DNA from: an uncultured delta proteobacterium
GTDB lineage: Bacteria > Myxococcota > Myxococcia > Myxococcales > Anaeromyxobacteraceae
Direction of reading: 5' to 3'
Length of the DNA stretch: 64,000 bases
Assembly: GCA_963814585.1 (NCBI GenBank)
Contig: CAWFDF010000012.1
Coordinates: forward strand, 1 to 64,000
Shown: positions 3,151 to 29,608 of the stretch, piece by piece
Layout of the letters: every line of letters begins with the position of its first letter
Position numbering within the stretch: position 1 is the first letter of the stretch
Made by a program: the position numbers and the translations under genes
The notes under the pieces: generated by a model
The model's input: only the letters and a program-made list of their open reading frames with translations
Databases searched by the model: none
Told to the model about the DNA's origin: nothing

Positions 3151-3194
3151 AGTCGGGGAGACAGGATTTGAACCTGCGACCCCTTGGTCCCGAA
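3151..3194. repeat. att repeat (distal copy): 44-bp duplication of the tRNA-Pro 3' half
   Basis: AGTCGGGGAGACAGGATTTGAACCTGCGACCCCTTGGTCCCGAA, identical to 29565-29608. Confidence 0.95.
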
Positions 3195-3515
3195 GGGCCG
3201 CAGGCCGATCCGCACGTCGTGGCACCGGGTGGCACCGCTTCGTATCCCTTCGATAACATTGGGCGCGCGACCGACGGTGGTTTCCACCCAGTGGCACCGT
3301 TTCCACCGGATGAGACGCCGTTTGGTGCATTAGTGGTGCAGGAGCATCCGGGGCCCCTGCTGACTGTTGGCGAGGTCTCGGCTCAGCTCCGGGTGTCGCG
3401 TGCGACCGTCTACCGGCTGGTGGCCTCCGGGCGACTGCCGAGCCTGCGCGTTTCGAACTCGGTTCGCATCCCTTCGTGGGCCACACGGCCGTCGTCATGG
3501 GACCAAGGCCGGTAA
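3168..3515 (+). CDS. Excisionase-family (HTH_17/Xis-like) DNA-binding protein; true start may be GTG 3333 or 3336
   Basis: LLTVGEVSAQLRVSRATVYRLVASGRLPSLRVSNSVRIP is a typical Xis/MerR-type HTH; it lies directly inside the att repeat. Confidence 0.8.
   Translation: MNLRPLGPEGPQADPHVVAPGGTASYPFDNIGRATDGGFHPVAPFPPDETPFGALVVQEHPGPLLTVGEVSAQLRVSRATVYRLVASGRLPSLRVSNSVRIPSWATRPSSWDQGR
3318..3343 (+). repeat. 26-bp repeat copy 1 (putative integrase arm-type sites, TGGTGCA x2)
   Basis: CCGTTTGGTGCATTAGTGGTGCAGGA, identical to 29473-29498. Confidence 0.8.
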
Positions 3516-3563
3516 TGTTCCGAGTCGCCAACCTTGGCGCTGCCCGCCGTGCCATGTATCGCT

Positions 3564-4352
3564 CTAGTGAGCCTCTTTCCGAAGCTGGCGTTCTCGGAGG
3601 TCATCCTTCCACCGGTACGGCAGGTCGACGATGGAGCCGGCGGGCAGGGATTGGGCGGCGTAGGTCAGGCAGTCACGCAGCACCGCCTCATGCGTGACGA
3701 CGTCACCGACGTCGCCGAGGGTCAAGCCGAACGGATGCTGGACGAAAAGCGCCTTCGACGGCTTCACCAGCGCCGTCATCTCCTTCACCAACGAGAGCGA
3801 GACCGTCGGTACACCAGCCTCATCGAAAACCCTCTGGACCAGTCCCACGGACTGGGAGCAGACGGGTCAAGAAGGGACCAGGATCGCCAGCTCGACCCCG
3901 TCTTCCCTGAGCAACTGGGCCACCTGTGGTGCCCGGTCCCGAAGCAGGCTCTCGGTCCGCGGGATGTAGCCCATGAAGGAGACGTGACGCGGGGCCACCT
4001 CACCGACGGCGCCGGCGGCGCAGAGCCGGCTCAGGAGCTGGTACGGGAAGACCGTGTCCAGATCCTGCTGGGCACGCCTGGTGTCGTAACCGGGATGGGC
4101 CAGTGCGACCTCCGATGGTGGGATCTCGCTGGGGATGATCCGGAAGCCGTCGTCACCGAGCGGGCTGCGAGTGTCGAAACGAGGCTGGCTGGCCGGGAGA
4201 TAGGCCCCGCTCGTCACCACCAGCGCGACCCGGCAGGCCTCCACCGGCTTGGCGAGCGGCGTGCCCGGCGTTGGCTCGGCGAAGGTCGTCCACTCGAAGT
4301 CCGGCATCAGCTTGCGCCGGAGGTAGTCGCGTTCGACGTCGGTGAAGCTCAC
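3564..4352 (-). CDS. PrdB/GrdB-like selenoprotein, UxxC motif (Sec TGA at 3867-3869)
   Basis: ORFs 3867..4931 and 3564..3848 are in frame across one TGA: AILVPS-U-PVCSQSVGLVQR. VALVVTSG and HVSFMG motifs of the reductase component B family. GTG start overlaps the cysK stop. Hairpin at 3839-3855. Confidence 0.9.
3839..3855 (-). promoter_or_regulatory. Candidate bacterial SECIS hairpin
   Basis: CCAGTCC-GTG-GGACTGG, starting 11 nt after the UGA. Confidence 0.7.
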
Positions 4353-5359
4353 GTCCCACCCCGTTCCATGAGCGGCCGAGGTTGGAGCTGCTTCGAGGCC
4401 AGGAACTCGGAGTTGAAGATTTTCGACGCATAGCGACTCCCGTGGTCGCACAGGAAGGTGACGATGCGCAGCCCCTCGCCCCGATGACGTAGGCCGATCT
4501 CGAAGGCAGCGCGCACATTGAGCGCCGCAGAGGTGCCCACCACCAGCGAGTCCTGACGCGCCAGGTGGTACAGCATCTCGATCATCTCCTGGTCGGTGAC
4601 CCGCATGGCCTCGTCCACCTGCGCCTGGCGGAAGTTCTCGGTCAGCCGCATGATGCCGATACCCTCGGTGATCGAGCCGCCAGTGGTCTCCAACTTCCCC
4701 TCCCGGACCTGGCAGTAGAGGCCGGAACCATATGGGTCGGCCAGCACCACGCGGGTCCTGGGTCGCTTCTCCTTGAGGTAGCGGCTCACGCCGGAGATGG
4801 TCCCGCCGGAGCCGACAGAGGCGACCAGCACATCCACCCTCCCCCCGCACTGCGCCAGTATCTCGGGCCCGGTGGTCTCGAAGTGGAAGTCGCCGTTGGC
4901 GGGGTTCTCGAACTGGTTGGCCCAGAACCACCCTTCCCGCTCCGCCAGGATCCTGGCCTGGTGGAAGAAGTGGCCTTCGTTGGCGAAGGGGACTGGCGGG
5001 ACCTTCCGGATCTCAACGCCCATGGCCTCCAGCGCCTCGTACTTCTCACGGGCCTGGTTGTCAGGCATGGTCACGACCACTCGGTAGCCGCGCTCCCGCC
5101 CCAGCAGCCCGAGCCCGATGCCGGTGTTCCCGGCCGTCCCCTCCACGATCGTGCCGCCGGGCTTCAGGAGGCCGGCCTCCTCGGCGGCCAGGATCATCCC
5201 TTTTGCCGCCCGGTCCTTGATGCTGCCGCCAGGGTTCATGAACTCGGCTTTTGCGAGGATCTCGCAGCCGGTGAGGCGCGAGAGCGAGCCGATGCGGAGC
5301 AGCGGCGTGTTGCCGACGGCGTCCCAGAGATTTCCGATAGGCGGGGCGGAGGTGGTCAC
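4349..5359 (-). CDS. cysK: Cysteine synthase (PLP-dependent, CysK family)
   Basis: GNTPL, KAEFMNPGGSIKDR (PLP lysine), EGTAGNTG, NQFEN, GSGGT, EGIG motifs. Confidence 0.9.
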   Translation of the reverse strand: MTTSAPPIGNLWDAVGNTPLLRIGSLSRLTGCEILAKAEFMNPGGSIKDRAAKGMILAAEEAGLLKPGGTIVEGTAGNTGIGLGLLGRERGYRVVVTMPDNQAREKYEALEAMGVEIRKVPPVPFANEGHFFHQARILAEREGWFWANQFENPANGDFHFETTGPEILAQCGGRVDVLVASVGSGGTISGVSRYLKEKRPRTRVVLADPYGSGLYCQVREGKLETTGGSITEGIGIMRLTENFRQAQVDEAMRVTDQEMIEMLYHLARQDSLVVGTSAALNVRAAFEIGLRHRGEGLRIVTFLCDHGSRYASKIFNSEFLASKQLQPRPLMERGGT

Positions 5360-5429
5360 GGAGGGTGAGTACCGGCCGCCGGCTCCGGGCGCAAGGGCTT
5401 CGCACGCCTCGGCCATCCCGGGCCGTGCC

Positions 5430-5455
5430 TGTAACGTCTCGCGGCCTGCCGAGTC
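5430..5455 (+). promoter_or_regulatory. ECF-type promoter motif, oriented antisense to the GST gene
   Basis: TGTAAC-N15-GAGTC, a match to the island consensus. Confidence 0.6.
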
Positions 5456-5470
5456 CATAGGAACGAAGTG

Positions 5471-6100
5471 TCAGATTCCAAAGACCAGCTCCGCCGTCCT
5501 CTGCCAGCTTGGCCTCGCCAGCAGGCGCTCCAGCCAACGCTGCACGGCCGGGTACCTTGTCAGGTCGAATCCGCCGTCGACGATGAGCCAGAGATGCGGG
5601 GCGTAGGCAATGTCGGCGAGGGAGAAGGCCCCCTCCAGCCACTCCATACCGGCCAGCGCACGCTCGAGCACGGGCAGCCAGCGCTCGAGGTCCTTGCGCG
5701 CCGCCTCGGCGGCCCGGGCGTCCCCCGTGGTCTTCCAGAACTCCTGCATGCGCCGGCTGGTTTGGAAGAAGAGTGGCGCGCAGGCCGGCGTCACGTGGGC
5801 GGCCTGGAAGAAGAGCCAGCGCTGGACCGCCGCGCGACCCTCGGTCGTCGCCGGGAGCAGGCCCGCAGCCGGGTTCTTCTCGGCCACGTACCAGTTGATG
5901 GCGTTCGACTCCCAGAGCTGGAAGCCGCCGTCGGAGAGCGCAGGGATCTTCCCCATCGGATTGATCGCCAGGTATCCGGCACCCCGATGTTCGCCACCGT
6001 GCGTGTCGAGCAGCCGGGGGATGAAGGGCACGCCAGCTTCGTAGAGTGCGAAGACGGACCTCGCCGAGTTGCCCGACATCCGCCCGTAGAGGAGTTCCAT
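5471..6100 (-). CDS. Glutathione S-transferase family protein
   Basis: INPMGKIPAL, LWESNAI and FSLADIA motifs. Confidence 0.9.
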   Translation of the reverse strand: MELLYGRMSGNSARSVFALYEAGVPFIPRLLDTHGGEHRGAGYLAINPMGKIPALSDGGFQLWESNAINWYVAEKNPAAGLLPATTEGRAAVQRWLFFQAAHVTPACAPLFFQTSRRMQEFWKTTGDARAAEAARKDLERWLPVLERALAGMEWLEGAFSLADIAYAPHLWLIVDGGFDLTRYPAVQRWLERLLARPSWQRTAELVFGI

Positions 6101-6189: not shown

Positions 6190-7074
6190 ATGAACCGCAT
6201 CAAGTCGGTGTTCATCGGCATCTACCCCGTGGTCACCACGGGCATCCTGGGCTACTCCGCCTGGATGCTGTTCGCCTCCGGCCAAATCCTGCTCTGGGCC
6301 GGACCGCTCCTCACGGTCGTCCCATTCATGTTGTTCCTGGGCCGGGCCATGCTGCTCAGGAACCTGGCGCGGACCAGCGCGAGCTTCCCGGCACTGAACG
6401 CCATGGCCGTCGCTGGCGTGGGACTGAGCGCCTTCCAGGTCATTGGGCGCAATGGCGACCAGTCTGCGCTCCTGCTCGCAGCCGTCGGCGCGGCCACCTT
6501 CCTGGTCTACTCGGTCTGGTACTCGGACCTGGGCCGCACCGCGAGCGGGAAGCTGGCGGTCGGCAAGAAGTTGCCCGACCTCGAGTTCCTGGCCGCCGAC
6601 GGCAAGCCGATTCATGTCCACGACTTCCTCGGCGCGCCCGCGCTCATCTTCTTCTACCGCGGCAACTGGTGCCCGCTCTGCATGGCGCAGGTGAAGGAGG
6701 TGGCCGCCCGCTACCGCGAGATCGCCGAGCTCGGCGCCCGCGTGGCGCTCATCAGCCCGCAGCCGCACGACAACACGCGGGAGCTAGCCCAGCGCTTCGA
6801 GGTCCCCTTCGACTTCCTGACCGACGTGGGGAACAGGGCGGCCCGCGCCCTCGACATCGAGATGAGGAACGGACTGCCAATTGGCTTCGGCCTCCTCGGC
6901 TACGAGAACGACACCGTCTTCCCGACCGTGATCGTGCTCGACGCCCAGGGCGTGATCCGATGGGTGGACCAGACCGACAACTACCGCGTGCGCCCCGAAC
7001 CCGAGACCTTCCTTCCCGTGCTGCGCAGCCTGGTCGGCGCCCCGGAGAAGCCGGTCGCGGTAGCTTCTATCTGA
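6190..7074 (+). CDS. Membrane-anchored peroxiredoxin-like (AhpC/TSA, redoxin) protein
   Basis: About four N-terminal TM segments, then FFYRGNWCPLC and the NYRVRPEP C-terminal motif; AAGGAG RBS. Confidence 0.85.
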   Translation: MNRIKSVFIGIYPVVTTGILGYSAWMLFASGQILLWAGPLLTVVPFMLFLGRAMLLRNLARTSASFPALNAMAVAGVGLSAFQVIGRNGDQSALLLAAVGAATFLVYSVWYSDLGRTASGKLAVGKKLPDLEFLAADGKPIHVHDFLGAPALIFFYRGNWCPLCMAQVKEVAARYREIAELGARVALISPQPHDNTRELAQRFEVPFDFLTDVGNRAARALDIEMRNGLPIGFGLLGYENDTVFPTVIVLDAQGVIRWVDQTDNYRVRPEPETFLPVLRSLVGAPEKPVAVASI

Positions 7075-7093: not shown

Positions 7094-7564
7094 ATGGGCG
7101 CAGTTCTGGAAGTGATCGGAGGGCGCTGGAATCGGCTCATGTCGACCGTGCTGCTTGGATCACTCCTGCTCTCGCCAGGCTGCCACGGTGGCGAGGCATC
7201 GAACCCCGCACCCCAGGGAGGAGCAGGGCAGACCCGGCGATACACGGTCCGGGGCGAGGTGGTCCGGGCGGCCGCCCCGACGAGCCAGGGCGGAGAGGTC
7301 TTCATCCGCCACGAGCCCATCGACGACTTCACCGACAGCAGCGGGAAGGTCGTGGGCATGGCGTCGATGACCATGCCGTTCCCGATGGGACCCGAGGTGC
7401 TATCGGACCCTCTCGCCGCAGGAGACAAGGTCGAACTCCGCTTCCTGGTGGACTGGTCTGGACCCGCCTTCCGGGTGGAGCGAATCCAGAAGTTGCCGCC
7501 CGCGACTCGCCTTCGTTTCGGCCCGGCGGCGCTCCGGTCGAAGCCGGTTCAACCATCGCAATAG
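7094..7564 (+). CDS. CusF-like periplasmic copper-binding lipoprotein
   Basis: YTVRGEV..IRHEPI..MASMTMPF with His/Met ligands; lipobox-like LSPGC. Confidence 0.75.
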   Translation: MGAVLEVIGGRWNRLMSTVLLGSLLLSPGCHGGEASNPAPQGGAGQTRRYTVRGEVVRAAAPTSQGGEVFIRHEPIDDFTDSSGKVVGMASMTMPFPMGPEVLSDPLAAGDKVELRFLVDWSGPAFRVERIQKLPPATRLRFGPAALRSKPVQPSQ

Positions 7565-7609: not shown

Positions 7610-8848
7610 TCACCGCGCCAGGCGGATCCCCGTCATCTGCCAGCGCGCCTGCGGTGGGAAGAAGTTGCGGTAGCTCGGCCGCAGGTGGCTCCCCGGCGAG
7701 AGGCAGGAGCCACCACGCAGGACCAGCTGGTTCACCATGAACTTGCCGTTGTACTCGCCGACCGCCCCGGCTGCGGCCTTGAAGCCCGGGTAGCCCACGT
7801 ACGGACTGGACGTCCAGGACCAGGCGCCCCCAAGCAAGGGCACGTCGCCGGAAGTGGCGAGCGGCTCCAGCCACCCGTTCTCCACGAACTGCCCGCCCGC
7901 TGGAGACGAGCGCGCAGCCGTCTCCCACTCGGCCTCGGTGGGGAGCCGCGCTCCAGCCCACCGGGCGAAGGCGTCCGCCTCGTAGTAGCTCACGTGGGTC
8001 ACCGGGGCGCCGGGATCGACTGGCCACTCGCCGTGGAGCGTGAAGCGCGACCAGCCGCCTTCTCGGCGGGTCCAATAGGGCGGCGCCTCCCAGCCCCCGG
8101 CCTGGGCCGCGGCAAATCCGTCCGAGAGCCAGAGCTCGGCGCGCCGGTAGCCGCCGTCCTCGATGAAGGCCAGGTACTCACCCGCGGTCACCGGGCGAGT
8201 GGCCACGGCGAAGGGCTGGAGGAAGGCCTGGTGAGCCGGCCCCTCGTTGTCGAAGGCGAAGCCATCGCCCTCGTGACCGATCTGGACCAGGCCACCGTCG
8301 TGCTGGTGCCACCTCAGCGGCGTCTCGACGGATGGGGGCGGCGCGGGCCGCGCGCGGAAGGCCGGCGCCAGCGGATTGCGCGAGAAGGCGTGGTGGATGT
8401 CCGTGAGCAGCAGCTCCTGGTGCTGCTGCTCGTGGTGGAGTCCGAGCTCCACGAGCGCCATCACCCCAGGCGCCGCCGCCCCGGGCGAGGCGAGGAACGC
8501 GCCGATGGCCGCGTCCACCGACGCCCGGTAGGCCCTCACCTCGGCCACGGTGGGCCGGGTCAGCAGGCCGCGCTCCGGTCGGGGGTGCCGCGGTCCCGCC
8601 GCCACGTAATAGGAGTTGAAGATGACGTCCCAGCCGTCCCGAAATGGACGGTAGCCCGGGGCATGGGGGACGAGCACGAAGGTCTCGAAGAACCAGCTGG
8701 TGTGCGCCAGGTGCCACTTCACCGGGCTGGCGTCCGGCATCGACTGGACGACGTAGTCCTCCAGCTCGAGCGTCTCGCAGAGCCGCTCGGTGGCCGCCCG
8801 CACCTCCTTCCACCGCGGGATCGGGCTGCCTGCCCCCTGCACCGTCAC
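7610..8848 (-). CDS. egtB: Ergothioneine biosynthesis sulfoxide synthase EgtB (type II-like)
   Basis: QSMPDASPVKWHLAH, FNSYY..RPER, HHEQQHQE iron ligands, and an FGE-like domain with EYNGKFM and YRNFF. Confidence 0.92.
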   Translation of the reverse strand: MTVQGAGSPIPRWKEVRAATERLCETLELEDYVVQSMPDASPVKWHLAHTSWFFETFVLVPHAPGYRPFRDGWDVIFNSYYVAAGPRHPRPERGLLTRPTVAEVRAYRASVDAAIGAFLASPGAAAPGVMALVELGLHHEQQHQELLLTDIHHAFSRNPLAPAFRARPAPPPSVETPLRWHQHDGGLVQIGHEGDGFAFDNEGPAHQAFLQPFAVATRPVTAGEYLAFIEDGGYRRAELWLSDGFAAAQAGGWEAPPYWTRREGGWSRFTLHGEWPVDPGAPVTHVSYYEADAFARWAGARLPTEAEWETAARSSPAGGQFVENGWLEPLATSGDVPLLGGAWSWTSSPYVGYPGFKAAAGAVGEYNGKFMVNQLVLRGGSCLSPGSHLRPSYRNFFPPQARWQMTGIRLAR

Positions 8849-9867
8849 GCCGCCTCCGGGCCGACCCGCCAGAGCGCGTCGGAGAACCAGCGCCGCTCGT
8901 CATGGAAGCGCTCCACCTCCTCGAAGCCTGCCTCCTGGGCCAGCGCCGCGATCTGGGCCTCGGTGTACTTCCAGGAGATCTCGGTCTGGATGGCCTCGCC
9001 CTCGCGGAACTCGAAGCGCTGGCCCGCGACGTGGACGACCTGCCGTCGCCGGGAGACGAGCCAGCTCTCCATGGCCGGCCGACCCGCATCAAAGGTGGCC
9101 CGGTGCTCGAAGTCCGAGAGGTCGAAGTCGGCGCCCAGCTCGCGGTTGACGCGGGAGAGCAGGTTCAGGTTGAAGGCCGCAGTCACGCCCTCCGGGTCGT
9201 CATAGGCGCCCCGGAGCAGGCCCTCGGGCTTGAGGAGATCGAAGCCGACCATCAGGTGGTCGCCGGGCCGGAGCGCCCGCCGCAGCGACCTCAGCAGCGC
9301 CAGCGCCGCCGTCCACTCCAGGTTGCCGATGTTGCTGCCGAGCAGGAGCGCCAGCAGCGGCGCGGTGCCGCTGGTGTGCGACGCCCGAGCCAGCCCGTCC
9401 ACGTAGTCACCGTGCACGGGCCGCACCTCGAGCGCCGGCCAGGAGGCCCGCAGGTGCTCAGACGCCGCCTCGAGCGCCGTGGCCGACACGTCGACCGGGA
9501 CGTAGACCGCCGCTGGCGACCGCCGAAGGGCAGCGTCCATGATCAGCCTGGTCTTGGTGCCGTCACCGGCGCCGAGATCGACGACGGACGACGGTCCGCT
9601 GGCGAGCAGCGCCACCATCGCGTTGGCGTGGCGCTCGATGATGCCGGTCTCGATCCGCGTCGGGTAGTAGCCGGGGAGCCTCATGATCCGCTCGAAGAGG
9701 CGGCTCCCCCAGGCGTCATAGAACCAGACCGACGGGATGGCCCGGAGTGGCAGCGCCAACCCGGCCAGTACGTCACGGCGGAAGCGCTGGCGTGAGGTTT
9801 CGCCCGCGCTGACCGCGTCTCGGCGTGTCGACCTGATCTCAGCGACGGCGGCTGGCGCGCTCGCCAT
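8845..9867 (-). CDS. egtD: L-histidine N(alpha)-methyltransferase EgtD
   Basis: WFYDAWGSRLFERI..YYPTR, DLGAGDGTKT, GSNIGN, AYDD.GVTAAFNLN, TEISWKY; coupled to egtB. Confidence 0.92.
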   Translation of the reverse strand: MASAPAAVAEIRSTRRDAVSAGETSRQRFRRDVLAGLALPLRAIPSVWFYDAWGSRLFERIMRLPGYYPTRIETGIIERHANAMVALLASGPSSVVDLGAGDGTKTRLIMDAALRRSPAAVYVPVDVSATALEAASEHLRASWPALEVRPVHGDYVDGLARASHTSGTAPLLALLLGSNIGNLEWTAALALLRSLRRALRPGDHLMVGFDLLKPEGLLRGAYDDPEGVTAAFNLNLLSRVNRELGADFDLSDFEHRATFDAGRPAMESWLVSRRRQVVHVAGQRFEFREGEAIQTEISWKYTEAQIAALAQEAGFEEVERFHDERRWFSDALWRVGPEAA

Positions 9868-9890
9868 GAACCCCTCCATGTCCTGGCCGG

Positions 9891-10175
9891 CTACCGCTCG
9901 ACGATGACGCCGTGCCAGAAGGCGATATAGCCGGCGATGCGACCGGCTGCCTCCTTGGGCGCCGGGTAGTACCAGGCCGCGTCGGCGTTCCGCTGCCCGC
10001 CGACCTCCACGTCATGGTAGCTGGCCTGCCCCTTCCAGCCGCACATGGTGTGGGTCTGGCTCTCGCGCAGGTACTCCGCCTTCACCGAGCCGGGAGGGAA
10101 GTAGACGTTCCCCTCCACCAGCTCGGTCTCGTCGCTCTCGGCCAGCACCGCACCGTTCCAGGTTGCCCGCGCCAT
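9891..10175 (-). CDS. DUF427 domain protein
   Basis: WNGAVLAES..VEGNVYFP..CGWKGQASY..AAWYYP; GAGGTGA RBS. Confidence 0.85.
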   Translation of the reverse strand: MARATWNGAVLAESDETELVEGNVYFPPGSVKAEYLRESQTHTMCGWKGQASYHDVEVGGQRNADAAWYYPAPKEAAGRIAGYIAFWHGVIVER

Positions 10176-10216
10176 GTGACTCACCTCCAGGTGCCACCAT
10201 GGCCCCTGGCGCGACG

Positions 10217-10242
10217 GACTCTCGGGATCGAACTCCATTGCA
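10217..10242 (-). promoter_or_regulatory. ECF-type promoter for DUF427-egtD-egtB
   Basis: TGCAAT-N15-GAGTC. Confidence 0.65.
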
Positions 10243-10316: not shown

Positions 10317-10342
10317 CGTAACGTCCCCGGTCCCCGGGAGTC
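10317..10342 (+). promoter_or_regulatory. ECF-type promoter for the VTT gene
   Basis: CGTAAC-N15-GAGTC. Confidence 0.7.
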
Positions 10343-10350
10343 GGATGAGC

Positions 10351-11076: not shown

Positions 11077-11162
11077 GGCCACCCCCGATGGGTGCCGGTG
11101 AAATCCCCGGCAACGCCGGGACCTCCGTAGCTGACGCACACACACGAACTCGAGGACTGACC

Positions 11163-11751: not shown

Positions 11752-11769
11752 TGGCCCGTGGCGGCGGGC

Positions 11770-11795
11770 TGTAATGCCCGCCCGCCTCGCGGGTC
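11770..11795 (+). promoter_or_regulatory. ECF-type promoter for arsM-PiT
   Basis: TGTAAT-N15-GGGTC. Confidence 0.7.
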
Positions 11796-11856
11796 CAACT
11801 CCTCAGGGCACCCGGACATCCTTCCGGCCCGCCGATCGCCAAGGAGTCGCCAGCCG

Positions 11857-19661: not shown

Positions 19662-19675
19662 GGCCCGGGCTCATG

Positions 19676-19725: not shown

Positions 19726-19751
19726 TGTAATGCCAGCACCTGCCGCGAGTC
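19726..19751 (+). promoter_or_regulatory. ECF-type promoter for the CMD-arsS operon
   Basis: TGTAAT-N15-GAGTC. Confidence 0.72.
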
Positions 19752-19793
19752 CAACCTTCGCCAACCCAGCGTCATCCACATCCGGAGAGCCGC

Positions 19794-20132: not shown

Positions 20133-20133
20133 C

Positions 20134-22757: not shown

Positions 22758-22763
22758 CGGAGC

Positions 22764-23429
22764 GTGGCCAAGGACGTGCTCTGCATCCTGGTGAAGTCGC
22801 CCCGCCTCGGCGAGGTGAAGACCCGGCTCATGCCGGCCGTCGGGCCTGAAGGCTCGGCCGCCTTGGCGCTCGCCTTCCTCGACGACACGCTGGCGATGGC
22901 CCGTGGTCGCGAGTGGGCGCGGGTGGTGGTTTCCGTGGCCGGCGACTCGTCGCTCCTGGTCCTGCCGGACGACGTCGAGGTCTGGTCCCAGGGGGCCGGC
23001 GACCTCGGTGAGCGCATGGAGCGGGCCCTGCTTCGAGCCCTGGTGAAGGCGCCCCGAGCGATCCTGATCGGGACCGACTCTCCCGGGCTGCCCCCGCGCC
23101 TCCTCGAAGGCGCCCGTACGGCGTTGGCCACTCACGACGCCGTGCTCGGGCCGGCCAGTGATGGCGGCTTCTACCTCATCGGGCTCGACCGCTGCGAGCC
23201 GGGTCTCCTCTGCGGCCTTCCCTGGAGCCGAAGCGACACGCTGGTGCACACCGAGGCCCGCCTGCGCCACGCCGGTCGGAGCGTGGCCCGACTCGAACCC
23301 TGGTTCGACGTCGACGAGCCAGCCGACCTCCTGCGCCTCGCAGCGCTCATGGAGGGCGGTGAGATCGTGGCTCCGGCGACGGCCCGGGCGCTTGCCTCGC
23401 TGGGACTCCTCGGCGGAGTGCCCGCGTGA
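22764..23429 (+). CDS. TIGR04282-like (DUF2064, CofC-like) glycosyltransferase-fold protein
   Basis: KSPRLGEVKTRL, QGAGDLGERM, IGTDSP, GPASDGGFYLIG, DVD. Confidence 0.88.
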   Translation: MAKDVLCILVKSPRLGEVKTRLMPAVGPEGSAALALAFLDDTLAMARGREWARVVVSVAGDSSLLVLPDDVEVWSQGAGDLGERMERALLRALVKAPRAILIGTDSPGLPPRLLEGARTALATHDAVLGPASDGGFYLIGLDRCEPGLLCGLPWSRSDTLVHTEARLRHAGRSVARLEPWFDVDEPADLLRLAALMEGGEIVAPATARALASLGLLGGVPA

Positions 23430-24112
23430 GCCTGACGGTCATCCTCCCGACCCTGAACGAGGCCGCGCGGATCGGCGCGCGGCTCGACGAACTCGCGACC
23501 ATGCCCGGGATCGACGAGGTCATCGTGGTGGACGGGGGGAGCGTGGACGCCACGGTGCCGATCTCCTCGGCCCGCCCGGGGGTCCGGGTCCTCTCTGCTC
23601 CGGCCGGACGGGCCGCGCAGCAGAACGCCGGGGCGGCTGCCGCCAGCGGCGACGTCCTGCTCTTCCTGCACGCCGACGTGTCACTCCCGATCGGCGCGGC
23701 GCGCCACGTGAGCAGGGCCCTGGAGGACCGGACCGTGGTGGCCGGCGCCTTCCGGACCTGGACCGTGCCGGACGACCGACCGTCGCGGCTGGCCCCGCTC
23801 CTCCACCTCGCCGACCTGCGCTCCCGCTACAGCGGTCTCCCATACGGCGACCAGGCCATCTTCGTTCGCTCCGACGCCTTCCGTGCCGCCGGTGGCTTTC
23901 CGGACCAGCCGCTCATGGAGGATCTGGAGCTCTCGCGCCGGCTCCGTCGGTTGGGGCGGATCAAGACGGTGCCGGCCTCGGTGAGCGTCTCGGGGCGGCG
24001 ATTCCTGTCGCGGCCGATCTTCTACTTCCTTGCCGTCAACCTCTTCCCGGCCCTCTACGCACTCGGGGTCTCGCCAGCCACGCTGAAGCGGCTCTACGGC
24101 GATCCGCGCTGA
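23426..24112 (+). CDS. TIGR04283-like GT2 glycosyltransferase
   Basis: ILPTLNE, VVDGGS, GRAAQQNAGA, LFLHAD, YGDQAIF, LMEDLE, SGRRF. Confidence 0.9.
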   Translation: MSLTVILPTLNEAARIGARLDELATMPGIDEVIVVDGGSVDATVPISSARPGVRVLSAPAGRAAQQNAGAAAASGDVLLFLHADVSLPIGAARHVSRALEDRTVVAGAFRTWTVPDDRPSRLAPLLHLADLRSRYSGLPYGDQAIFVRSDAFRAAGGFPDQPLMEDLELSRRLRRLGRIKTVPASVSVSGRRFLSRPIFYFLAVNLFPALYALGVSPATLKRLYGDPR

Positions 24113-25245
24113 GGCTCGCCCGCCAGGGTGGCCTTGCGCCGCGCCGATCGGCGGCGGCGGTCGATGGTCTGCACGGCGCGTACAGCGTATTCCTGCGCCG
24201 TGTAGATCTGCTTCAGGGACGGTGCGTCACCCGGGCGCCGGCTCATGTCGCCCACCGCGAACAGACCTCGCACCGAGGTCTCGCTTCCGGCGTCGTCAAC
24301 GAGGACGTGCCGCTCCTCCTCCGGCCCGGTGTCGCGCGGGTCGAGCGCCGCGCCAAGCTGGCGGGCCAGGTCGTTGTAGACCCGGTGGAGCCCCATGGCG
24401 ACCATGCCGAAGCGGACCTCCACGCTGGTCCCGTCCTCCAGCCGGAAGCCGCCCAGGCTGGCCCCCCTCGGCTTCTCACCGCCGTCGATCACCTCCACCA
24501 CGCGCGCCTCGTGGAAGGGGATCCGGTAGGCGGCCAGCAGGCGCCGGGTGTCCTCGCCAGCCGTGAGTGCGGCACCGTTACCGAGCAGCGCCACCTCCAC
24601 GCCGTACCGCTCGTGCAGCAGGAGCGCCACCTGGGCCGCTCCCTCACTGGCGCCGAAGACCGCAACCTGCGCGCCGCGCACCAGGTGCCCCTCGCAGAGG
24701 ATGCAGTAGAGCAGGGTCTCGTTGTTGGCCCAGGGGAAGATCCACTTCACGTCGTCCACCACCTTGCCGGCCCTGGTGGTGAGCTTCACCGCCGGCTGCC
24801 GGTCCATGATTCCCGTGGCGAGGGCCAGCGCGTTTCCCACCACCAGACGACCGGTGGCGGTCTCGACCTCGAAGCCCTCCCCGGCGCGGCGGGCCGCGAC
24901 GGCCTTCTCATCGATGAAGGTCACGTTGGCGGAGAAGCCCTGCCGGAGCCGCGCGACCACGTCGTCCACGATCTCCTGGGTCCCGATGTGGAAGTGGGTG
25001 GACTCGAGCGCGGCCCGGGCCGCCGCGTGCTCGGGGGCGGCGAGGAGAGCGATGGCCTTCTTGCGCACGATGGCGTCGTGGACGCCGATCATGTTGTCGA
25101 CGTTGTAGACGTAGCGGACCCGGCTGGCCCTGGCGGTGTCCTCGTCGCCACGGATCCAGGCTACCTGGAGACCGTGCTGCGCCGACCGGAGCGCCACGGC
25201 GCTCCCACCGATGCCACCACCCACCACGATCACGTCGAAAGCCAT
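24094..25245 (-). CDS. NAD(P)/FAD-dependent oxidoreductase (thioredoxin-reductase-like)
   Basis: VVGGGIGG, LATG, YCILCEGH (CxxC), ETSVRGLFAVGD. Confidence 0.85.
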   Translation of the reverse strand: MAFDVIVVGGGIGGSAVALRSAQHGLQVAWIRGDEDTARASRVRYVYNVDNMIGVHDAIVRKKAIALLAAPEHAAARAALESTHFHIGTQEIVDDVVARLRQGFSANVTFIDEKAVAARRAGEGFEVETATGRLVVGNALALATGIMDRQPAVKLTTRAGKVVDDVKWIFPWANNETLLYCILCEGHLVRGAQVAVFGASEGAAQVALLLHERYGVEVALLGNGAALTAGEDTRRLLAAYRIPFHEARVVEVIDGGEKPRGASLGGFRLEDGTSVEVRFGMVAMGLHRVYNDLARQLGAALDPRDTGPEEERHVLVDDAGSETSVRGLFAVGDMSRRPGDAPSLKQIYTAQEYAVRAVQTIDRRRRSARRKATLAGEPQRGSP

Positions 25246-25338
25246 GCGTCCTCCCGGTGGGCAGAGGGCCCATGACATCGACAACGGCCGCGGCCGCCCA
25301 TTTCAGGTCCGCCCCATCTGGGTCGCAGCTGGAGTCGC

Positions 25339-25364
25339 GGTAATCCCCGCGGGCTTCCGGAGTC
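25339..25364 (+). promoter_or_regulatory. ECF-type promoter for DUF547-sigma-anti-sigma
   Basis: GGTAAT-N15-GAGTC. Confidence 0.72.
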
Positions 25365-25373
25365 GAAGGGAGG

Positions 25374-26162
25374 ATGATCTCCACCACCCATCCCGTGCTG
25401 CTTCCCGCCCTGGCGCTCCTTCTGGCCGGGCCGTGGAACGTGCCGGCCGCCGAGGCATCCGCCACCTTCGACCGCTCGCATGCCGCCTACACGGCGCTGC
25501 TCCAGCGCCACGTGTCGAACGGCATGGTCGACTATGCCGCGCTGAAGCGGGATGCCGTCCTGGGCACCTACCTGGCCAGCCTCTCGGAGGTGTCGAGGGA
25601 GGAACTCGAGGCGTGGCCCGAGTCCGACCGGATCGCCTTCTGGATCGACGCCTACAACGCCTTCACGCTGCAGCTCATCCTCGAGCACTACCCGGTGAAG
25701 TCGATCCGCTCCATCGGCTTCCTTCCGGGGTCGGCCTTTCGGCAGGAGTTCATCCGCCTTCGCGCCGCAGGCAGCGCACCCATCTCCCTCGACTTCATCG
25801 AGCACGAGACGCTCCGTAAGCGCTTCCGCGAGCCGCGCGTCCACTTCGCTCTGGTCTGCGCCTCGGCGAGCTGTCCCTCACTCCGGGGCGAGGCCTACCG
25901 GGGGGCCGACCTCGACCGGCAGCTCGAGGAGGCCACCCGCGCCTTCCTGGCCGATCAGCGCAAGAACCGCTTCGACGCCGCCACCCGGACGCTGCACCTC
26001 TCGGCCATCTTCAAGTGGTTCGGGGAGGACTTCGAGCGAGCCGCCGGGAGCGTTCCGGCCTTTGTCTCCCAGCACGCGCTGGCCGAGTTCGGGGCCGTCC
26101 TCTCCTCGGGGCCCGTCGCAGTCGAGTATGAGCCGTACGACTGGTCGCTCAACGGCAGGTGA
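25374..26162 (+). CDS. Exported DUF547 protein
   Basis: VDYAAL, AFWIDAYNA, EPRVHFALVCASASCP, SAIFKWFGEDF, YDWSLN. Confidence 0.9.
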   Translation: MISTTHPVLLPALALLLAGPWNVPAAEASATFDRSHAAYTALLQRHVSNGMVDYAALKRDAVLGTYLASLSEVSREELEAWPESDRIAFWIDAYNAFTLQLILEHYPVKSIRSIGFLPGSAFRQEFIRLRAAGSAPISLDFIEHETLRKRFREPRVHFALVCASASCPSLRGEAYRGADLDRQLEEATRAFLADQRKNRFDAATRTLHLSAIFKWFGEDFERAAGSVPAFVSQHALAEFGAVLSSGPVAVEYEPYDWSLNGR

Positions 26163-26213
26163 GACGATTTCTCTGGCCCCACGTCAACCTCGCGGAGAAG
26201 ATGTCGCAACCCG

Positions 26214-26876
26214 ATGAGCTCGCCCGCTCCAGGCCGAGAGACCAGTCTCAGCGCCGAGGCCGCGGATGAGCAGGCGCTCGTCCAGCGGCTTCGCGCCGGA
26301 GATCGCGCCGCCTTCACCGCGGTGGTGGTCCAGCACGGCGGTGCGCTCCTCCGCCTCGCCTCGACCTTCGTGAAGGACCGCGCGCTCGCCGAGGAGGTCG
26401 TACAGGACGCCTGGCTCTCGGCGCTCGAACACCTCGACGCTTTCGAAGGGCGCGCCTCGCTCAGGACCTGGCTCTTCCACATCGTCGCCAACCGGGCCAG
26501 GACCCGCCTGAGCCGGGAAGGCCGGAGCGTGCCGTTCTCCTCCCTCGGCAGGCCCGAGGACTCCGACGAGCCGGCTGTCAGCCCCGACCGCTTCGACCAG
26601 GGCGGGATGTGGAAGGAGCCCCCCGGGCGGTGGTCGGAGGAGAACCCCGAGCGCCTGGCGCAGGGGGTCGAGACACGGGCTGCCATCGAGCGAGCCATCG
26701 CCGAGCTCCCCGAAGCCCAGCGCGCCGTCATCACCCTTCGGGATATCGAGGAGTTGGAGACGGAAGAAATCTGTAATCTTCTCGACATCACGGTGTCGAA
26801 TCAGAGGGTGCTGTTGCACAGGGCCCGATCCAGGGTCCGGCAAGCCCTCGAGAAGCTCATGGCCGGAGGGCGCTGA
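26214..26876 (+). CDS. ECF RNA polymerase sigma factor
   Basis: AEEVVQDAW, FEGRASLRTWL, ICNLLDITVSNQRVLLHRAR. Confidence 0.92.
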   Translation: MSSPAPGRETSLSAEAADEQALVQRLRAGDRAAFTAVVVQHGGALLRLASTFVKDRALAEEVVQDAWLSALEHLDAFEGRASLRTWLFHIVANRARTRLSREGRSVPFSSLGRPEDSDEPAVSPDRFDQGGMWKEPPGRWSEENPERLAQGVETRAAIERAIAELPEAQRAVITLRDIEELETEEICNLLDITVSNQRVLLHRARSRVRQALEKLMAGGR

Positions 26877-27112
26877 TGCTGACCTGCAAGCAGATCACCG
26901 AACTGGTGACGGCCTACGCCGAGGGGCAGCTTCGCTTCATGGATCGGATGCGCTTCCGCCTGCACATCGGGATGTGCGCGAACTGCAAGACCTACGTCCG
27001 TCAGCTCCAGGTCACGGCCAAGGCGCTGGGAAAGTTGCCTGAGCCGGAGATTCCGCCCGAGCTACAGGCGGAGCTGCTGCGCCGCTTCGAAGGCTGGAAG
27101 GCGCAGCGGTAG
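26876..27112 (+). CDS. zf-HC2 (ZAS) anti-sigma factor
   Basis: MLTCKQ...LHIGMCANC (HxxxCxxC); TGATG coupling to the sigma gene. Confidence 0.9.
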   Translation: MLTCKQITELVTAYAEGQLRFMDRMRFRLHIGMCANCKTYVRQLQVTAKALGKLPEPEIPPELQAELLRRFEGWKAQR

Positions 27113-27126
27113 GCTCAACCTCGATC

Positions 27127-27152
27127 GGTAACGTCCCTCTCACCTGTGAGTC
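27127..27152 (+). promoter_or_regulatory. ECF-type promoter for patatin-NrtS-like genes
   Basis: GGTAAC-N15-GAGTC. Confidence 0.72.
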
Positions 27153-27176
27153 AATCCAGGAAGAGGAGATCGAGCG

Positions 27177-28196
27177 ATGGCACGGGCACTGGTCCTCACG
27201 GCAGGTGGAATCACCGGCGCGATGTACGAGGTGGGTGTCCTCCGGGCCGTCGAGGAGCGCCACGGGTCCCCGCTCGACCTCTTCGACCTCTTCGTCGGCG
27301 TCTCCGCGGGTGCGACCGTGGCGACCTTCCTGGCCCAGGGTGTCCCGGCCACCCGGCTCTACGAGGCCCTGCTCGCTGGCGGCGACCCGCTCTTCCCGCT
27401 GGAGCAGCGTCATGTGGCCGCGCTCGACCTGGCCCGAGCCGTCCGCCTGGGCGGAACGGCGGCCAGGCTGGCGCTGCGGGCGATCCTTCGGCTCCTGGTC
27501 CGACGCCCGGCCCCTCCAAGCACCACCACCCCAGGTCTGCCCGCGGGCCTCTTCGACACGGAGCCCTACCGGAAGTTCATCGCCTCCACCCTGGCGGAGC
27601 GTGGACTCTCCGACGACTTCCGGGCCCTCTCCCGGCCCCTCCTCATCCCGGCCACCGAACTCGACTCCGCCCAGCGAGTCACCTTCGGCTTGGCGCCCTG
27701 GGACGACGTCCCCATCTCCACGGCCGTGGCCGCCTCCTCCGCCATCCCGGGCTTCTTCGAGCCGGTCGCGCTCCGCGGCCGGCAGTTCATCGACGGCAAT
27801 GTCGGAGCGGTGGCCCACCTCGACTTGGTTGCGGCCCGCGGCATCGAGGAGGTGCTGGTCGTGAGCCCGCGTGCGCCGGTCGAGAACGTCGGGGGACCCT
27901 GCATCATCCCCGGCGAACACGGCGATTGCCTGTCGCTCCGCGAGCGCGGGCTCTGGGCCGTATACGAGCAGGCGACCCGCATCGAGCACCAGGAGAGGCT
28001 CCACCTGGGCATCGATCGCTTCCGTCACCTCCATCCAGGGACAAGGGTTTCGCTCGTCGAACCGGAGCGGGCCGATGCCACGCTCTTCCTCGCGAACCCC
28101 ATGGGGCTGGAGGCCCGGCGAGAGGTGCTGGCCGCCGGGTACGCTCGGGGGCAGGCCATCCTCTCGGCCGGCGAGTTCGTATTGGAGGCTGCGTGA
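27177..28196 (+). CDS. Patatin-like phospholipase
   Basis: AGGITG, GVSAG (GxSxG), ASSAIPGFF, IDGN. Confidence 0.88.
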   Translation: MARALVLTAGGITGAMYEVGVLRAVEERHGSPLDLFDLFVGVSAGATVATFLAQGVPATRLYEALLAGGDPLFPLEQRHVAALDLARAVRLGGTAARLALRAILRLLVRRPAPPSTTTPGLPAGLFDTEPYRKFIASTLAERGLSDDFRALSRPLLIPATELDSAQRVTFGLAPWDDVPISTAVAASSAIPGFFEPVALRGRQFIDGNVGAVAHLDLVAARGIEEVLVVSPRAPVENVGGPCIIPGEHGDCLSLRERGLWAVYEQATRIEHQERLHLGIDRFRHLHPGTRVSLVEPERADATLFLANPMGLEARREVLAAGYARGQAILSAGEFVLEAA

Positions 28197-28471
28197 ACCA
28201 CCGCCCCCCAGGGAGCCGGAGCACCGCGAGAGCTCTGCCCGGCTCCAGCGACCTTCGTCGGGCGATCCTGGTCTCGGCCGGCGTGGGGACGGCGCTGGTC
28301 CTGCTCAACCAGGGCGACCTCCTTCTCGGCGCGGCCGCCGGCGCCCAGTTGCCCAGCAGGCTGGCCTGGAAAGTCCCACTGACCTACCTCGTGCCCTTCC
28401 TGGTCTCCTACCTCTCGAGCCGCGCCGCGTCCCGTGCCACCTCCCGTCACACCGTCACGATCCCGGAGTAA
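28193..28471 (+). CDS. Small two-TM membrane protein (NrtS-like)
   Basis: VGTALVLLNQGD..LTYLVPFLVS; GTGA overlap with the patatin stop. Confidence 0.7.
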   Translation: MNHRPPGSRSTARALPGSSDLRRAILVSAGVGTALVLLNQGDLLLGAAAGAQLPSRLAWKVPLTYLVPFLVSYLSSRAASRATSRHTVTIPE

Positions 28472-28492
28472 TCATTCCGGCGGTGGCGAGTC
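28467..28492 (+). promoter_or_regulatory. ECF-type promoter for the right-end selenoprotein
   Basis: AGTAAT-N15-GAGTC. Confidence 0.7.
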
Positions 28493-28528
28493 GGACCTGA
28501 AGGCGCCCGGTGGCGCAGCGAGGCTCGC

Positions 28529-29302
28529 ATGGCACTCATCTCCGATCTTCCGCTCTGGCTCCGCGTCGTCCTGAAGACCTATCCGTGGCGCCGCATCGAT
28601 CCTGTTCCCCTGGCGCCCCTTCGCAAGCCGATCGGCGAGAGCCGGATTGCGCTGGTGACGACGGCCGGCCTGGTCCCGGCTGGAGAGGCCCCGTTCGACG
28701 AGGGCGTGAAGGGCGGCGACTTCTCCTACCGGGTCATCCGCGGCGACGCGGACGTTCGCACCCTCACCGAGCACCACCGGAGCGAGTCGTTCGACCACGC
28801 CGGCATCCTGGAGGACGCCAACCTGGCCTTTCCGCTGGACCGGCTGAGGGAGCTGGCGGCGCGGGGAGAGATCGGTGAGGTCGCGCCGCGTCACCTCTCC
28901 TTCATGGGCTCCATCACGGCGCCAGGCCGGCTTACTGCGCGCACCGCTCCCGAGGCCGCCGAGCTCCTCGTGCAGGACCAGGTCGACATCGCGCTGCTCG
29001 TCCCCGTTTGACCCATGTGCCATCAGGCCGTGGGCCTGATCCAGGCGGAGCTGGAGCGGCGCGGCATCCGTACTGCCTCCATCACCATGCTTCCCGAGGT
29101 GACCCGCGCCGTCCGGCCGCCGCGGGCACTGTCGGTGCCGTTCGACCTCGGCTACCCGCTCGGCAAGCCCTCCGACCCCGCCACCCAGAGCCGGGTGCTA
29201 CGCCAGCTGCTTCGGCTCGCCCTCTCGGAAGGAGTTCCCGTTATTGGCGATTTGGACGCTCCCAACGAAAGCGGCCCCGGAGCGGCACAGGAGGCGGCGT
29301 GA
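28529..29302 (+). CDS. PrdB/GrdB-like selenoprotein, UxxC motif (Sec TGA at 29009-29011)
   Basis: ORFs 28529..29011 and 29015..29302 are in frame: [37 protein letters not shown] and PF.LGYPLG motifs; paralog of 3564-4352. Confidence 0.92.
29022..29040 (+). promoter_or_regulatory. Candidate SECIS hairpin
   Basis: ATCAGGCC-GTG-GGCCTGAT, a perfect 8-bp stem 10 nt after the UGA. Confidence 0.75.
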
Positions 29303-29472
29303 GCCCGGCCTGGGGCCCCTGACAGGCGCGTCATGGTCCCCGACCCCTTGGCTTTGAGCCAACTGGCGCCAATGCGCACGGAGTGGCACCCTTTGTACGA
29401 TGGCCTGATTCCGAAGACTTGCGAGGGCGCTGATCCGACCAGATCTGGACAATGGGAGCTCCGGAATCGCCA

Positions 29473-29498
29473 CCGTTTGGTGCATTAGTGGTGCAGGA
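29473..29498 (+). repeat. 26-bp repeat copy 2 (putative arm-type sites)
   Basis: Identical to 3318-3343. Confidence 0.8.
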
Positions 29499-29516
29499 AC
29501 CAAGGGGCTCATAGTC

Positions 29517-29562
29517 GAAGGCCCCGGAACGATCGGTTTTGCCGAATCGTTCCAGGGCCTTC
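29517..29562 (-). terminator. Long hairpin just downstream of tRNA-Pro (terminator-like, no clear U tract)
   Basis: GAAGGCCCCGGAACGAT...ATCGTTCCAGGGCCTTC inverted repeat. Confidence 0.55.
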
Positions 29563-29564
29563 TG

Positions 29565-29608
29565 AGTCGGGGAGACAGGATTTGAACCTGCGACCCCTTG
29601 GTCCCGAA
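29565..29608. repeat. att repeat (tRNA copy)
   Basis: Identical to 3151-3194. Confidence 0.95.

Follow-up and report, generated by a model that had tools for sequence, protein, structure and literature searches.

A putative ECF sigma factor regulon for thiol and metal(loid) stress on a tRNA-Pro island of an uncultured member of the Anaeromyxobacteraceae

The DNA considered here is the first 64 kb (the window, positions 1-64,000, to which all coordinates without a contig name refer) of contig C12 in the assembly of an uncultured member of the Anaeromyxobacteraceae (code G000; 4.34 Mb in 18 contigs, 92% complete, 72.9% GC). Window positions 3152-29565 are, on balance, probably a 26.4-kb horizontally acquired island without an integrase, inserted at a tRNA-Pro(CGG) gene and working as a self-contained regulon of a sigma factor of the extracytoplasmic function (ECF) type and its anti-sigma factor. 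Judging from genes and promoters, it is best read as a thiol and metal(loid) stress regulon of a known kind, whose cargo and wiring are new as far as literature searches show, and one repeated promoter signal probably switches it on as a whole. Gene calls were checked with Pfam and NCBIfam profiles, and scores are given as bits against the family cut-off in the form a>b or a<b.

Boundaries and acquisition of the island

The element is flanked by two identical 44-bp direct repeats (44/44). The left one (3151-3194), which is att-like, is a copy of the 3′ part of tRNA-Pro(CGG), and the right one (29565-29608) is that 3′ part itself, within the tRNA gene (29566-29640, minus strand; ARAGORN, Rfam 66.4 bits, alignment). 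The two copies coincide exactly with the limits, 3151 and 29608, that an earlier sequence-only reading of this DNA had given to its island. The Rfam scan matched only two tRNAs. Abutting the left repeat is a gene for an excisionase-family helix-turn-helix (HTH) protein (xis-like; 3168-3512, plus strand; PF12728 40.4 bits, TIGR01764 41.1>28.8), whose true start is probably further downstream.

Same-genus genomes keep the tRNA and the right flank in synteny, with 76-89% DNA identity, and in two of them, G002 and G006, the island is absent from the equivalent site: when 34 island and 6 flank proteins were compared by tblastn (E 1e-8) with the 20 kb left of the tRNA, none of them was found. Regarding composition, the island has 69.9% GC against 72.9% for the genome, placing it in the lowest 3% of 26.4-kb windows. 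The repeats, the absence from this site in G002 and G006 and the lower GC bear out the earlier claim of a tRNA-Pro island, and the 34 island proteins are not core at this site in the two relatives. In G006, the same tRNA-Pro carries a different element (L030 12716-19764; G006:C3:333500-353460) made up of a tyrosine integrase directly next to the tRNA together with an HTH_17 protein, a PolB-type DNA polymerase and a C5 DNA methylase, which marks the gene as an insertion hot spot. In addition, a small contig of G007 (C482) combines an xis-like homologue, a repeat copy and the island's 260-nt tRNA-proximal non-coding end with different cargo.

A third perfect 44-bp copy lies in the same orientation at G000:C8:697688, 7.8 kb from the end of contig C8, and a RibD_C gene near it is 88% identical to an inverted one near the tRNA of G002. 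The pattern suggests that two islands lie in tandem and that C8 continues into C12, the C8 repeat segment and window 1-3150 probably forming a second island split by the contig break. A search for overlap between the ends of C8 and C12 found none, so this adjacency is drawn solely from the third repeat copy and the RibD_C gene. Beyond the C8 copy (G000:C8:697688-705499; L018:11689-19500) are a Gp49/HigB-like and HTH pair, an alcohol dehydrogenase, a LysR protein, an SDR and a cyclophilin-like gene. Window 1-3150 has 64% GC and holds a PAE/myxo-repeat protein, the myxobacterial repeat family TIGR02232 matching at 1-1569, along with genes lacking an assignment.

A repeated promoter motif

The 33 island genes of the Pfam/NCBIfam annotation fall, by spacing and orientation, into 16 putative transcription units. 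The strict motif GTAA(T/C)(G/C)-N16-GTC, counted on both strands, has 14 genome-wide occurrences, of which 10 fall inside the island, where 0.09 would be expected by length, and 10 of the 15 GTAA(T/C)(G/C) hexamers in the island are followed by GTC at N16. As spacer controls, the N12 and N20 versions were counted in the same genome, and none of their 13 and 6 occurrences, respectively, falls in the island. Alignment of the sites yields cTGTAA(T/C)G-N14-GAGTC(N)A as consensus, the spacers being unconserved, which argues for a functional motif and not a repeated element. A position weight matrix (PWM) built from 8 intergenic island sites gave the held-out site at 5431 a score of 21.4 bits, above every non-island site (next 19.7), and within the window all PWM hits of at least 6 bits lie in the island, with none in 29.6-64 kb. 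A first promoter reading, TGGGTC-N14-GTAAT with GTAAT as the -10 element, was dropped, as the GTC at N16 downstream is far more consistent.

Correctly oriented, the sites precede start codons by about 5-60 nt. Strict sites that also score on the PWM precede the VTT gene (10318-10346, plus strand, with the ATG at 10351, 6 nt after the -10 element), ArsM-PiT (11771-11799, plus), the bufferin operon (18600-18628, minus), the sigma gene ECF1 (19672-19700, minus), the TIGR04169-ArsS operon (19727-19755, plus), the DUF547-ECF2-anti-sigma operon (25340-25368, plus), the patatin gene (27128-27156, plus) and PrdB-like selenoprotein gene 2 (28468-28496, plus). Two relaxed sites add an N17-spacer form upstream of thioredoxin (Trx; 18686-18715, plus), conserved in metagenome contig L122, and a weak candidate, GCAATG-N16-GTC, upstream of DUF427-EgtD-EgtB (10213-10241, minus). 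The strict motif thus stands just upstream of 8 of the 16 units, and of 10 with the relaxed sites, covering 24 of the 33 genes; the earlier statement that most operons share one promoter motif holds to this extent, 'most' being slightly generous. The two remaining strict sites are a weak one inside the 3′ end of ECF2, ahead of the anti-sigma gene (26773-26801, plus; PWM only 10.6), and the 5431 site (5431-5459, plus), which lies inside the 5′ end of CysK, antisense to the glutathione S-transferase (GST) gene and 730 nt upstream of Prx-like 1, and could belong to a long leader or an antisense RNA or be a relic. The best motif-like site outside the island is at G000:C3:148824 (plus strand, 19.7 bits, TGTCACG...GGTCCAAT), and a second MNIO-like stretch is found about 20 kb away, at C3:168955.

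Sigma factors and the proposed circuit

The island encodes two ECF sigma factors, which share only 30% identity over 131 residues. ECF2 (26214-26876), with r2 and r4 domains, follows a DUF547 gene (25374-26162) and precedes the gene of a 78-aa anti-sigma factor (26876-27113), the three spanning 25374-27113 on the plus strand; the anti-sigma start overlaps the ECF2 stop codon. The small protein is of the ZAS type, with a zf-HC2 domain (34.4>22.2), an HxxxCxxC motif and the residues Cys4, His30, Cys34 and Cys37. ECF1 (19128-19661, minus strand; TIGR02937 55.6>42.9) has no adjacent anti-sigma gene. A sigma factor with a putatively co-transcribed anti-sigma factor and a motif shared with the sigma's own promoter are the features by which an ECF regulon is recognised.

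In 9 of 30 relatives, the bufferin genes directly adjoin the ECF2 orthologue and its anti-sigma gene, and the motif lies exactly between bufferin genes and ECF2 in G005, G006, G009, G011, G016 and G017, as well as, by eye, in G001; across the relatives' genomes the strict motif is at background level only. In G000, a 7.6-kb block with Trx, ECF1, the ArsS operon, the second flavoprotein and DUF547 splits the bufferin genes from ECF2. ECF1-like DNA was found in one of the 30 relatives, G008. Because of this adjacency and of the rarity of ECF1, the motif is most likely read by ECF2, and ECF1, having a site of its own, would be a target or a partner.

In the circuit proposed, ECF2 would be held by the small cytoplasmic zinc-finger anti-sigma factor, RsrA-like in its HxxxCxxC motif, until thiol-reactive stress (oxidants, electrophiles or soft metal(loid)s such as Cu(I), As(III) and selenite) frees it to read GTAA(T/C)(G/C)-N16-GTC. 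The predicted targets are its own operon, ECF1, thioredoxin, VTT-CMD, patatin and PrdB-like selenoprotein 2; X-BufA2-BufB-BufC-Prx-like, for a periplasmic copper-binding peptide that is made on ribosomes and modified after translation (RiPP); ArsM-PiT and TIGR04169-ArsS-disulfide reductase-two transferases, for organoarsenical synthesis; and probably DUF427-EgtD-EgtB, for ergothioneine.

Recurrence in other genomes and metagenomes

None of the 12 same-genus genomes besides G000 gave an ArsS match, and in the family 9 of 92 genomes, G000 included, have the gene. Homologues with a named source belong to metagenome-assembled genomes of Myxococcales and Anaeromyxobacteraceae, which, like the TIGR02232 repeat protein at 1-1569, point to Myxococcota. 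Among the 80 nearest ArsS loci, surveyed with 10-kb flanks, TIGR04169 accompanies 67, TIGR04283 19, TIGR04282 15, DUF547 9, ArsM 7, CysK 5, the reductase 4, Trx 2 and an ECF2-like gene 2. Regarding the bufferin side, a query of 5 other genomes with ArsS gave no BufB match in 4 of them.

The fullest counterpart is in another genus, where genome G059 holds about 20 island homologues within 21 kb, at 32-71% identity and in a different order. They are Prx-like, a PrdB-like fragment, both transferases, reductase, VTT, PiT, ArsS, ArsM and DUF547, followed by patatin, the CMD protein, X, BufA2, BufB, the second flavoprotein, anti-sigma, ECF2, Trx and ECF1, with DUF547-ArsM-ArsS-PiT-VTT-reductase-transferases on one strand. 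Its EgtB is unlinked, on another contig, and the flanks carry MerT, a CopZ-type zinc-finger protein, Fur and HxlR, with no tRNA within 38 kb.

Metagenome contigs were also examined, and among the best 11 the ECF1-Trx pair occurs in 7. Two share the layout of G000, namely L121 (ArsS 87%, TIGR04169 96%, ECF1 88% and Trx 96% identical) and L122 (ECF1 72%, Trx 70%, X 81%, BufA2 75%), and in both the motif stands at the matching promoters, its -35 and -10 elements preserved while the spacers differ: the ECF1 and TIGR04169-ArsS sites are conserved in L121, and the bufferin site in L122 as well as at the buf promoter of relatives. Five others (L124, L125, L127, L129 and L131) have an ECF1-type sigma beside thioredoxin, at 42-60% identity, without bufferin or ArsS genes, which may represent a conserved sigma-Trx pair lacking a classical anti-sigma factor.

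The family-conserved part is the ArsS set, ECF1, Trx, bufferin, ECF2/anti-sigma and patatin, and the left 7 kb (GST, CysK, PrdB-like 1, Prx-like 1 and CusF), possibly with EgtBD, looks like a later accretion. Linkage elsewhere, which had been set as a check on the earlier proposal, is seen in part: most modules occur together within the 21 kb of G059, whereas EgtBD, CysK and GST are not so linked.

Weighing the evidence and the alternatives

Several observations weigh against a single mobile and co-regulated unit. No tyrosine integrase (PF00589) is present in the island or at the C8 end, the four genome matches all lying elsewhere, and no recombinase family turned up in the general Pfam scans, in which serine recombinases had no separate search. 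For lack of an integrase in or beside the island, the word transferable depends on the repeats and the absence from relatives, and the gap between C8 and C12 could hide such a gene. Five to six of the 16 units have no motif: no site was found for the xis-like gene, GST-CysK-PrdB-like 1, the gene at 14031-14384, the AhpD-like selenoprotein and the second flavoprotein, Prx-like 1-CusF has only the distant 5431 site, and no second motif for such units was seen by eye. Moreover, the Egt site is relaxed (GCAATG), with a PWM score below 6, no obvious gene follows the 5431 site, which runs antisense to GST, and the enrichment figure is partly post hoc, this island being the source from which the motif was derived; independent checks come from the spacer controls, the held-out site and conservation in other sequences. 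Elsewhere, no Buf, Egt, PrdB-like, AhpD-Sec, Prx-like, CusF or patatin gene occurs at any of the 80 nearest ArsS loci, whose ArsS clusters also lack the motif upstream, and the G059 cluster lacks the strict motif, having only GTAATC-N16-GAC variants before buf and ECF1. The earlier idea of a single transferable stress regulon survives in part: the motif does precede the arsenic, bufferin, sigma, Trx, patatin and PrdB-like operons, against which stand the missing integrase, five units without a motif and the Egt, CysK and GST genes that are unlinked elsewhere.

A rival explanation is an accretion mosaic, in which unrelated stress modules would have gathered at a tRNA hot spot and be separately regulated, the motif being the operator of another factor or the promoter of a sigma encoded elsewhere. 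The modules do have separate histories, as the bufferin and ECF2 genes that are contiguous in relatives are split here, the closest DNA matches of EgtBD, CysK and GST lie at other places in relatives, the ArsS loci lack the other modules, a different integrase-bearing element sits at the same tRNA in G006, and the third repeat copy suggests tandem insertions. A mosaic is nonetheless unlikely, since 10 of the 14 genome copies of the motif are in the island at promoter positions, the motif precedes both island sigma genes and travels with the ECF2 orthologue in relatives, and the ArsS+ECF1+Trx (L121) and ECF1+Trx+buf (L122) junctions recur with it.

An alternative that we hold to be just as doubtful keeps the regulon and changes its reader: ECF1 would recognise the motif, or both sigmas would share it, and ECF2 with its anti-sigma factor would serve the bufferin operon only. 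ECF1 lies between the bufferin/Trx promoters and the ArsS promoter, bears the motif itself, occurs only where the extended gene set does (G059, L121, L122 and G008) and resembles ECF2 at the low identity given above. Against this, the buf promoter of relatives keeps the motif beside ECF2 with ECF1-like DNA in G008 alone, and the more distant ECF1-Trx pairs of the metagenome contigs lack the strict motif.

Regarding products, the ArsS/ArsM set could act mainly on selenium, or make a selenium small molecule with EgtB/EgtD (selenoneine-like), and not on arsenic. The selenoprotein-rich setting, SelD on the same contig, the 344 bits that EgtB gives on the SenA model and the weak resemblance of the PiT-family transporter to the sulfate permease CysP would fit this. 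The selenoneine reading was rejected, as EgtB passes the EgtB cut-off and fails that of SenA (344<420) and the transferases have no SenB-type match in NCBIfam; with the full-length alignment of ArsM to solved arsenite methyltransferases, Cys being kept at four positions, a selenium role of the set is improbable. Least probable is an old chromosomal region with a partial tRNA duplication, for which the absence of an integrase, the modest GC shift and the tRNA-free surroundings of the G059 cluster would speak, given the three perfect 44-bp copies, the lack of any match to an island protein in G002 and G006 over the 20 kb left of their tRNA, and the excisionase-like genes adjoining repeat copies here and in G007:C482.

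Relation to known systems

Each module is known singly, and the literature searches gave no description of this combination, with the proviso that the supplementary tables of the bufferin survey might list similar clusters. What the locus offers is a concrete regulatory link that can be put to the test, with one sigma, one motif and ten sites, through which a single sensor would govern copper-binding peptides, organoarsenical synthesis, thioredoxin and selenoproteins. It bears on the control of ArsS-type clusters and of Buf2-type bufferins outside Caulobacter, and on what the companion genes of ArsS do (disulfide reductase, DedA, DUF547 and transferases), and at sequence level it is a clear case of an entire predicted regulon carried, together with its sensor, by an acquired island.

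An ECF-controlled defence locus has reportedly been found in Myxococcus. SigR-RsrA of Streptomyces likewise has a small cytoplasmic HxxxCxxC anti-sigma factor and targets that include thioredoxin and low-molecular-weight thiol synthesis; the likeness is in anti-sigma motif and targets, whereas the promoter differs from the GGAAT-N18-GTT of SigR. Similarly, integrase-less att-flanked tRNA islands, the cis-mobilisable elements, share with this one the repeats derived from a tRNA 3′ end, the tandem layout suggested here and the lack of an own recombinase; the present island is known from its sequence layout, and mobilisation in trans would be supposed by analogy.

The metal-stress regulon of Caulobacter sigmaF-NrsF is among the nearest likenesses (PMC3511200, PMC11626156): sigmaF reads GTAACC-N16-CGAA and controls both bufferin clusters, buf1 and buf2, so that in both systems an ECF sigma stands over bufferin operons with a -35 GTAAC and a 16-nt spacer. 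NrsF is a cysteine-dependent anti-sigma factor responding to thiophilic metals, for which a counterpart is proposed here by analogy. The differences are a 78-aa soluble zf-HC2 protein in place of the six-helix membrane NrsF, a -10 element GTC(N)A instead of CGAA, and a regulon placed on a repeat-flanked island and extended to ArsM/ArsS, Trx, patatin, a selenoprotein and probably EgtBD. Regarding islands, GI-6 of S. coelicolor is a known example of this kind of regulon (bioRxiv 10.1101/247056). One published genomic island is similar in that an ECF sigma and anti-sigma factor(s) accompany a regulon of small-molecule enzymes, contiguous and with -35/-10 elements in common, the proposal being that the whole moves together; that island belongs to another phylum, has other cargo and had its induction shown by microarray, whereas the present case is made from sequence.

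A bolder and tentative idea, which we put forward as possible at most, is that of a plug-and-play regulon, in which one ECF/zinc-finger anti-sigma switch and its promoter were installed before modules of separate origin (bufferin, ArsM/ArsS, thioredoxin, patatin, selenoprotein and probably ergothioneine), the set being movable between genomes. As a corollary, the ArsS-reductase-DedA-transferase-DUF547-patatin set, which is linked in G059, would make a membrane-associated organoarsenical for thiol-stress defence and not for plain arsenic detoxification.

Arsenic and redox genes

The arsenic genes form separate units on the plus strand. A VTT/DedA membrane protein (10351-11076; PF09335 77.8 bits) and a CMD/AhpD-family protein with CEYC (11163-11774; PF02627 31.8 bits) make up 10351-11774, and ArsM (11857-12903) with a PiT/PHO4-family transporter (12894-14027; PF01384 220 bits) make up 11857-14027. 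About 7 kb from ArsM is the unit 19794-24112, with the TIGR04169 CMD protein (186>120), ArsS (20071-21231; TIGR04167 440>300, a radical SAM protein with a DUF3641 domain), a class-I flavoprotein disulfide reductase (about 21250-22757), TIGR04282 (22764-23429; 163>134) and TIGR04283 (23426-24112; 202>182). ArsM aligns over nearly its full length with the solved ArsM 5evj_A (E 5e-108) and keeps Cys at four positions (TSAC, GCG, SNC and GEC), which we take to be the catalytic cysteines; it falls below all NCBIfam ArsM cut-offs (best 174<263; AsSugarArsM 83<400). No ArsR, ArsB/Acr3 or ArsC family match was found among the island open reading frames scanned with Pfam and NCBIfam.

These matches substantiate the arsenosugar-type gene set (ArsM, ArsS, CMD, TIGR04282/04283, VTT and DUF547) that had been read from the sequence, the flavoprotein in it being a disulfide reductase. 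As in the ArsM-ArsS arsenosugar pathway, known from cyanobacterial work, ArsS, TIGR04169, TIGR04282 and TIGR04283 are above cut-off here too, and ArsM is a full-length homologue. Compared with arsenosugar clusters, ArsM-PiT is 7 kb from ArsS here and adjacent to it in G059, and control is apparently through an ECF promoter here; a disulfide reductase and DedA/VTT also accompany ArsS in G059.

A second FAD-dependent oxidoreductase, with no motif upstream, lies at 24097-25284 (minus strand; PF07992 57.3 bits). The earlier label of thioredoxin reductase (TrxR) is supported for neither flavoprotein, as this one scores 61<343 on TIGR01292 and that at 21250-22757 belongs to NF004991 (750>620), being MerA/GR-like. 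Thioredoxin itself is encoded at 18763-19101 (plus; TIGR01068 106.5>96.8), and a patatin-like phospholipase at 27177-28196 (plus; PF01734 96.3 bits). Trx, patatin, GST, VTT, PHO4, DUF547 and the two AhpC/TSA proteins all exceed their Pfam cut-offs. A 118-aa protein without family match (14031-14384, minus) is encoded divergently from the AhpD-like selenoprotein gene.

Bufferin operon

The bufferin operon (15012-18554, minus strand; Pfam and NCBIfam) comprises X (17913-18554), BufA2 (17557-17826; NF050166 73>60), BufB (16648-17550; NF050167 379>310), BufC (15797-16644; DUF2063, PF09836 67.6>27.2) and Prx-like 2 (15012-15785). BufA2 has a signal peptide and six Cys in its core, and X is a Myxococcota-specific protein whose YceI-like resemblance is a lead only. 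With precursor, MNIO enzyme and DUF2063 partner all above cut-off, this is a Buf2-type cluster, in line with the bufferin-type MNIO cluster read earlier, and its product is predicted to be a copper-binding RiPP with thiooxazole modification. The CusF-like protein that had been placed with it is present and lies 8 kb from the bufferin genes, adjoining Prx-like 1. In the bufferin survey PMC12452194, sigma/anti-sigma genes are reported in Buf1 and not in Buf2 clusters. Unlike there, a Buf2-type cluster adjoins an ECF/zf-HC2 pair in this family (L031, L033; window 15884-18600 with 26214-27113).

Ergothioneine, cysteine synthase and neighbouring genes

On the minus strand, the DUF427-EgtD-EgtB operon (7613-10175) contains EgtB (7613-8848; TIGR03440 561>360), EgtD (8848-9879; TIGR03438 317>291) and DUF427 (9894-10175; PF04248), and further left are cysteine synthase A (CysK; 4352-5458; NF007989 447>387) and the GST (5474-6100; GST_N 49 bits, GST_C 33.7 bits). 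The reported combination of EgtB/EgtD with CysK is hence confirmed by cut-offs throughout. On the plus strand are Prx-like 1, a membrane-anchored AhpC/TSA-fold protein with WCPLC (6190-7074; PF00578 80.5 bits), and the CusF-like periplasmic protein (7094-7564; PF11604, CusF_Ec, 32.4>27); both Prx-like proteins of the island are AhpC/TSA members with WCPxC. A second EgtB/EgtD copy lies outside the island (G000:C3:78765-81538), with 69-76% DNA identity, and the island copy is nearer to that of G012 (87%). In Rhodococcus, selenite induces EgtB, CysK and TrxA, according to PMC13414329, which is a parallel only and not evidence.

Selenoproteins

The three UGA-recoded selenoproteins recognised earlier are upheld, since family profiles run on across all three in-frame TGAs, homologues bear Cys, and the genome encodes SelA, SelB, SelD and tRNA-Sec. 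They are PrdB/GrdB-like selenoprotein 1 (3567-4340, minus strand; PSUPVC, TGA 3867-3869), the AhpD-like protein of TIGR01926 (14464-14994, plus; CFYU, TGA 14650-14652), whose profile segments 29-81 and 84-177 flank the TGA, and PrdB/GrdB-like selenoprotein 2 (28529-29302, plus; PVUPMC, TGA 29009-29011). The PrdB-like family counts 2620 proteins at E<=1e-10; its full-length members (244-286 aa) have Cys at the U position of both PrdB-like proteins, and many close homologues of PrdB-like 2 are called at exactly 160 aa, the position of the TGA. In the AhpD-like protein, U falls inside the TIGR01926 profile gap, and at the position aligned with it the paralogue has the second Cys of its CxxC. Hairpins with G/U-containing loops follow each UGA by 14-20 nt, with modest z values of -1.6 to -2.8: that of PrdB-like 1 has a GUG loop (z -2.8), that of the AhpD-like gene has 7 bp and starts 20 nt after the UGA, and PrdB-like 2 has the inverted repeat, its minimum-energy fold pairing differently.

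SelD (G000:C12:177802-178728) itself contains one in-frame TGA, and ARAGORN predicts two tRNA-Sec genes, at C8:206783 and C9:112340. The PrdB-type (UxxC) and AhpD-like (CxxU) families and their motifs are already catalogued in Table 2 of PMC2398784. Compared with the catalogued PrdB families, the Pfam families and selenocysteine motifs are the same, and the proteins here are short (about 257 aa) with no PrdA/Grd partner seen in the island, making a role in a reductase complex unlikely. The PrdB-like gene of G059 (L117:12838-13293) keeps U, the downstream part and the hairpin, with the N-terminal two thirds replaced by a Rossmann-like stretch, and by its sequence is a fragment or a fusion.

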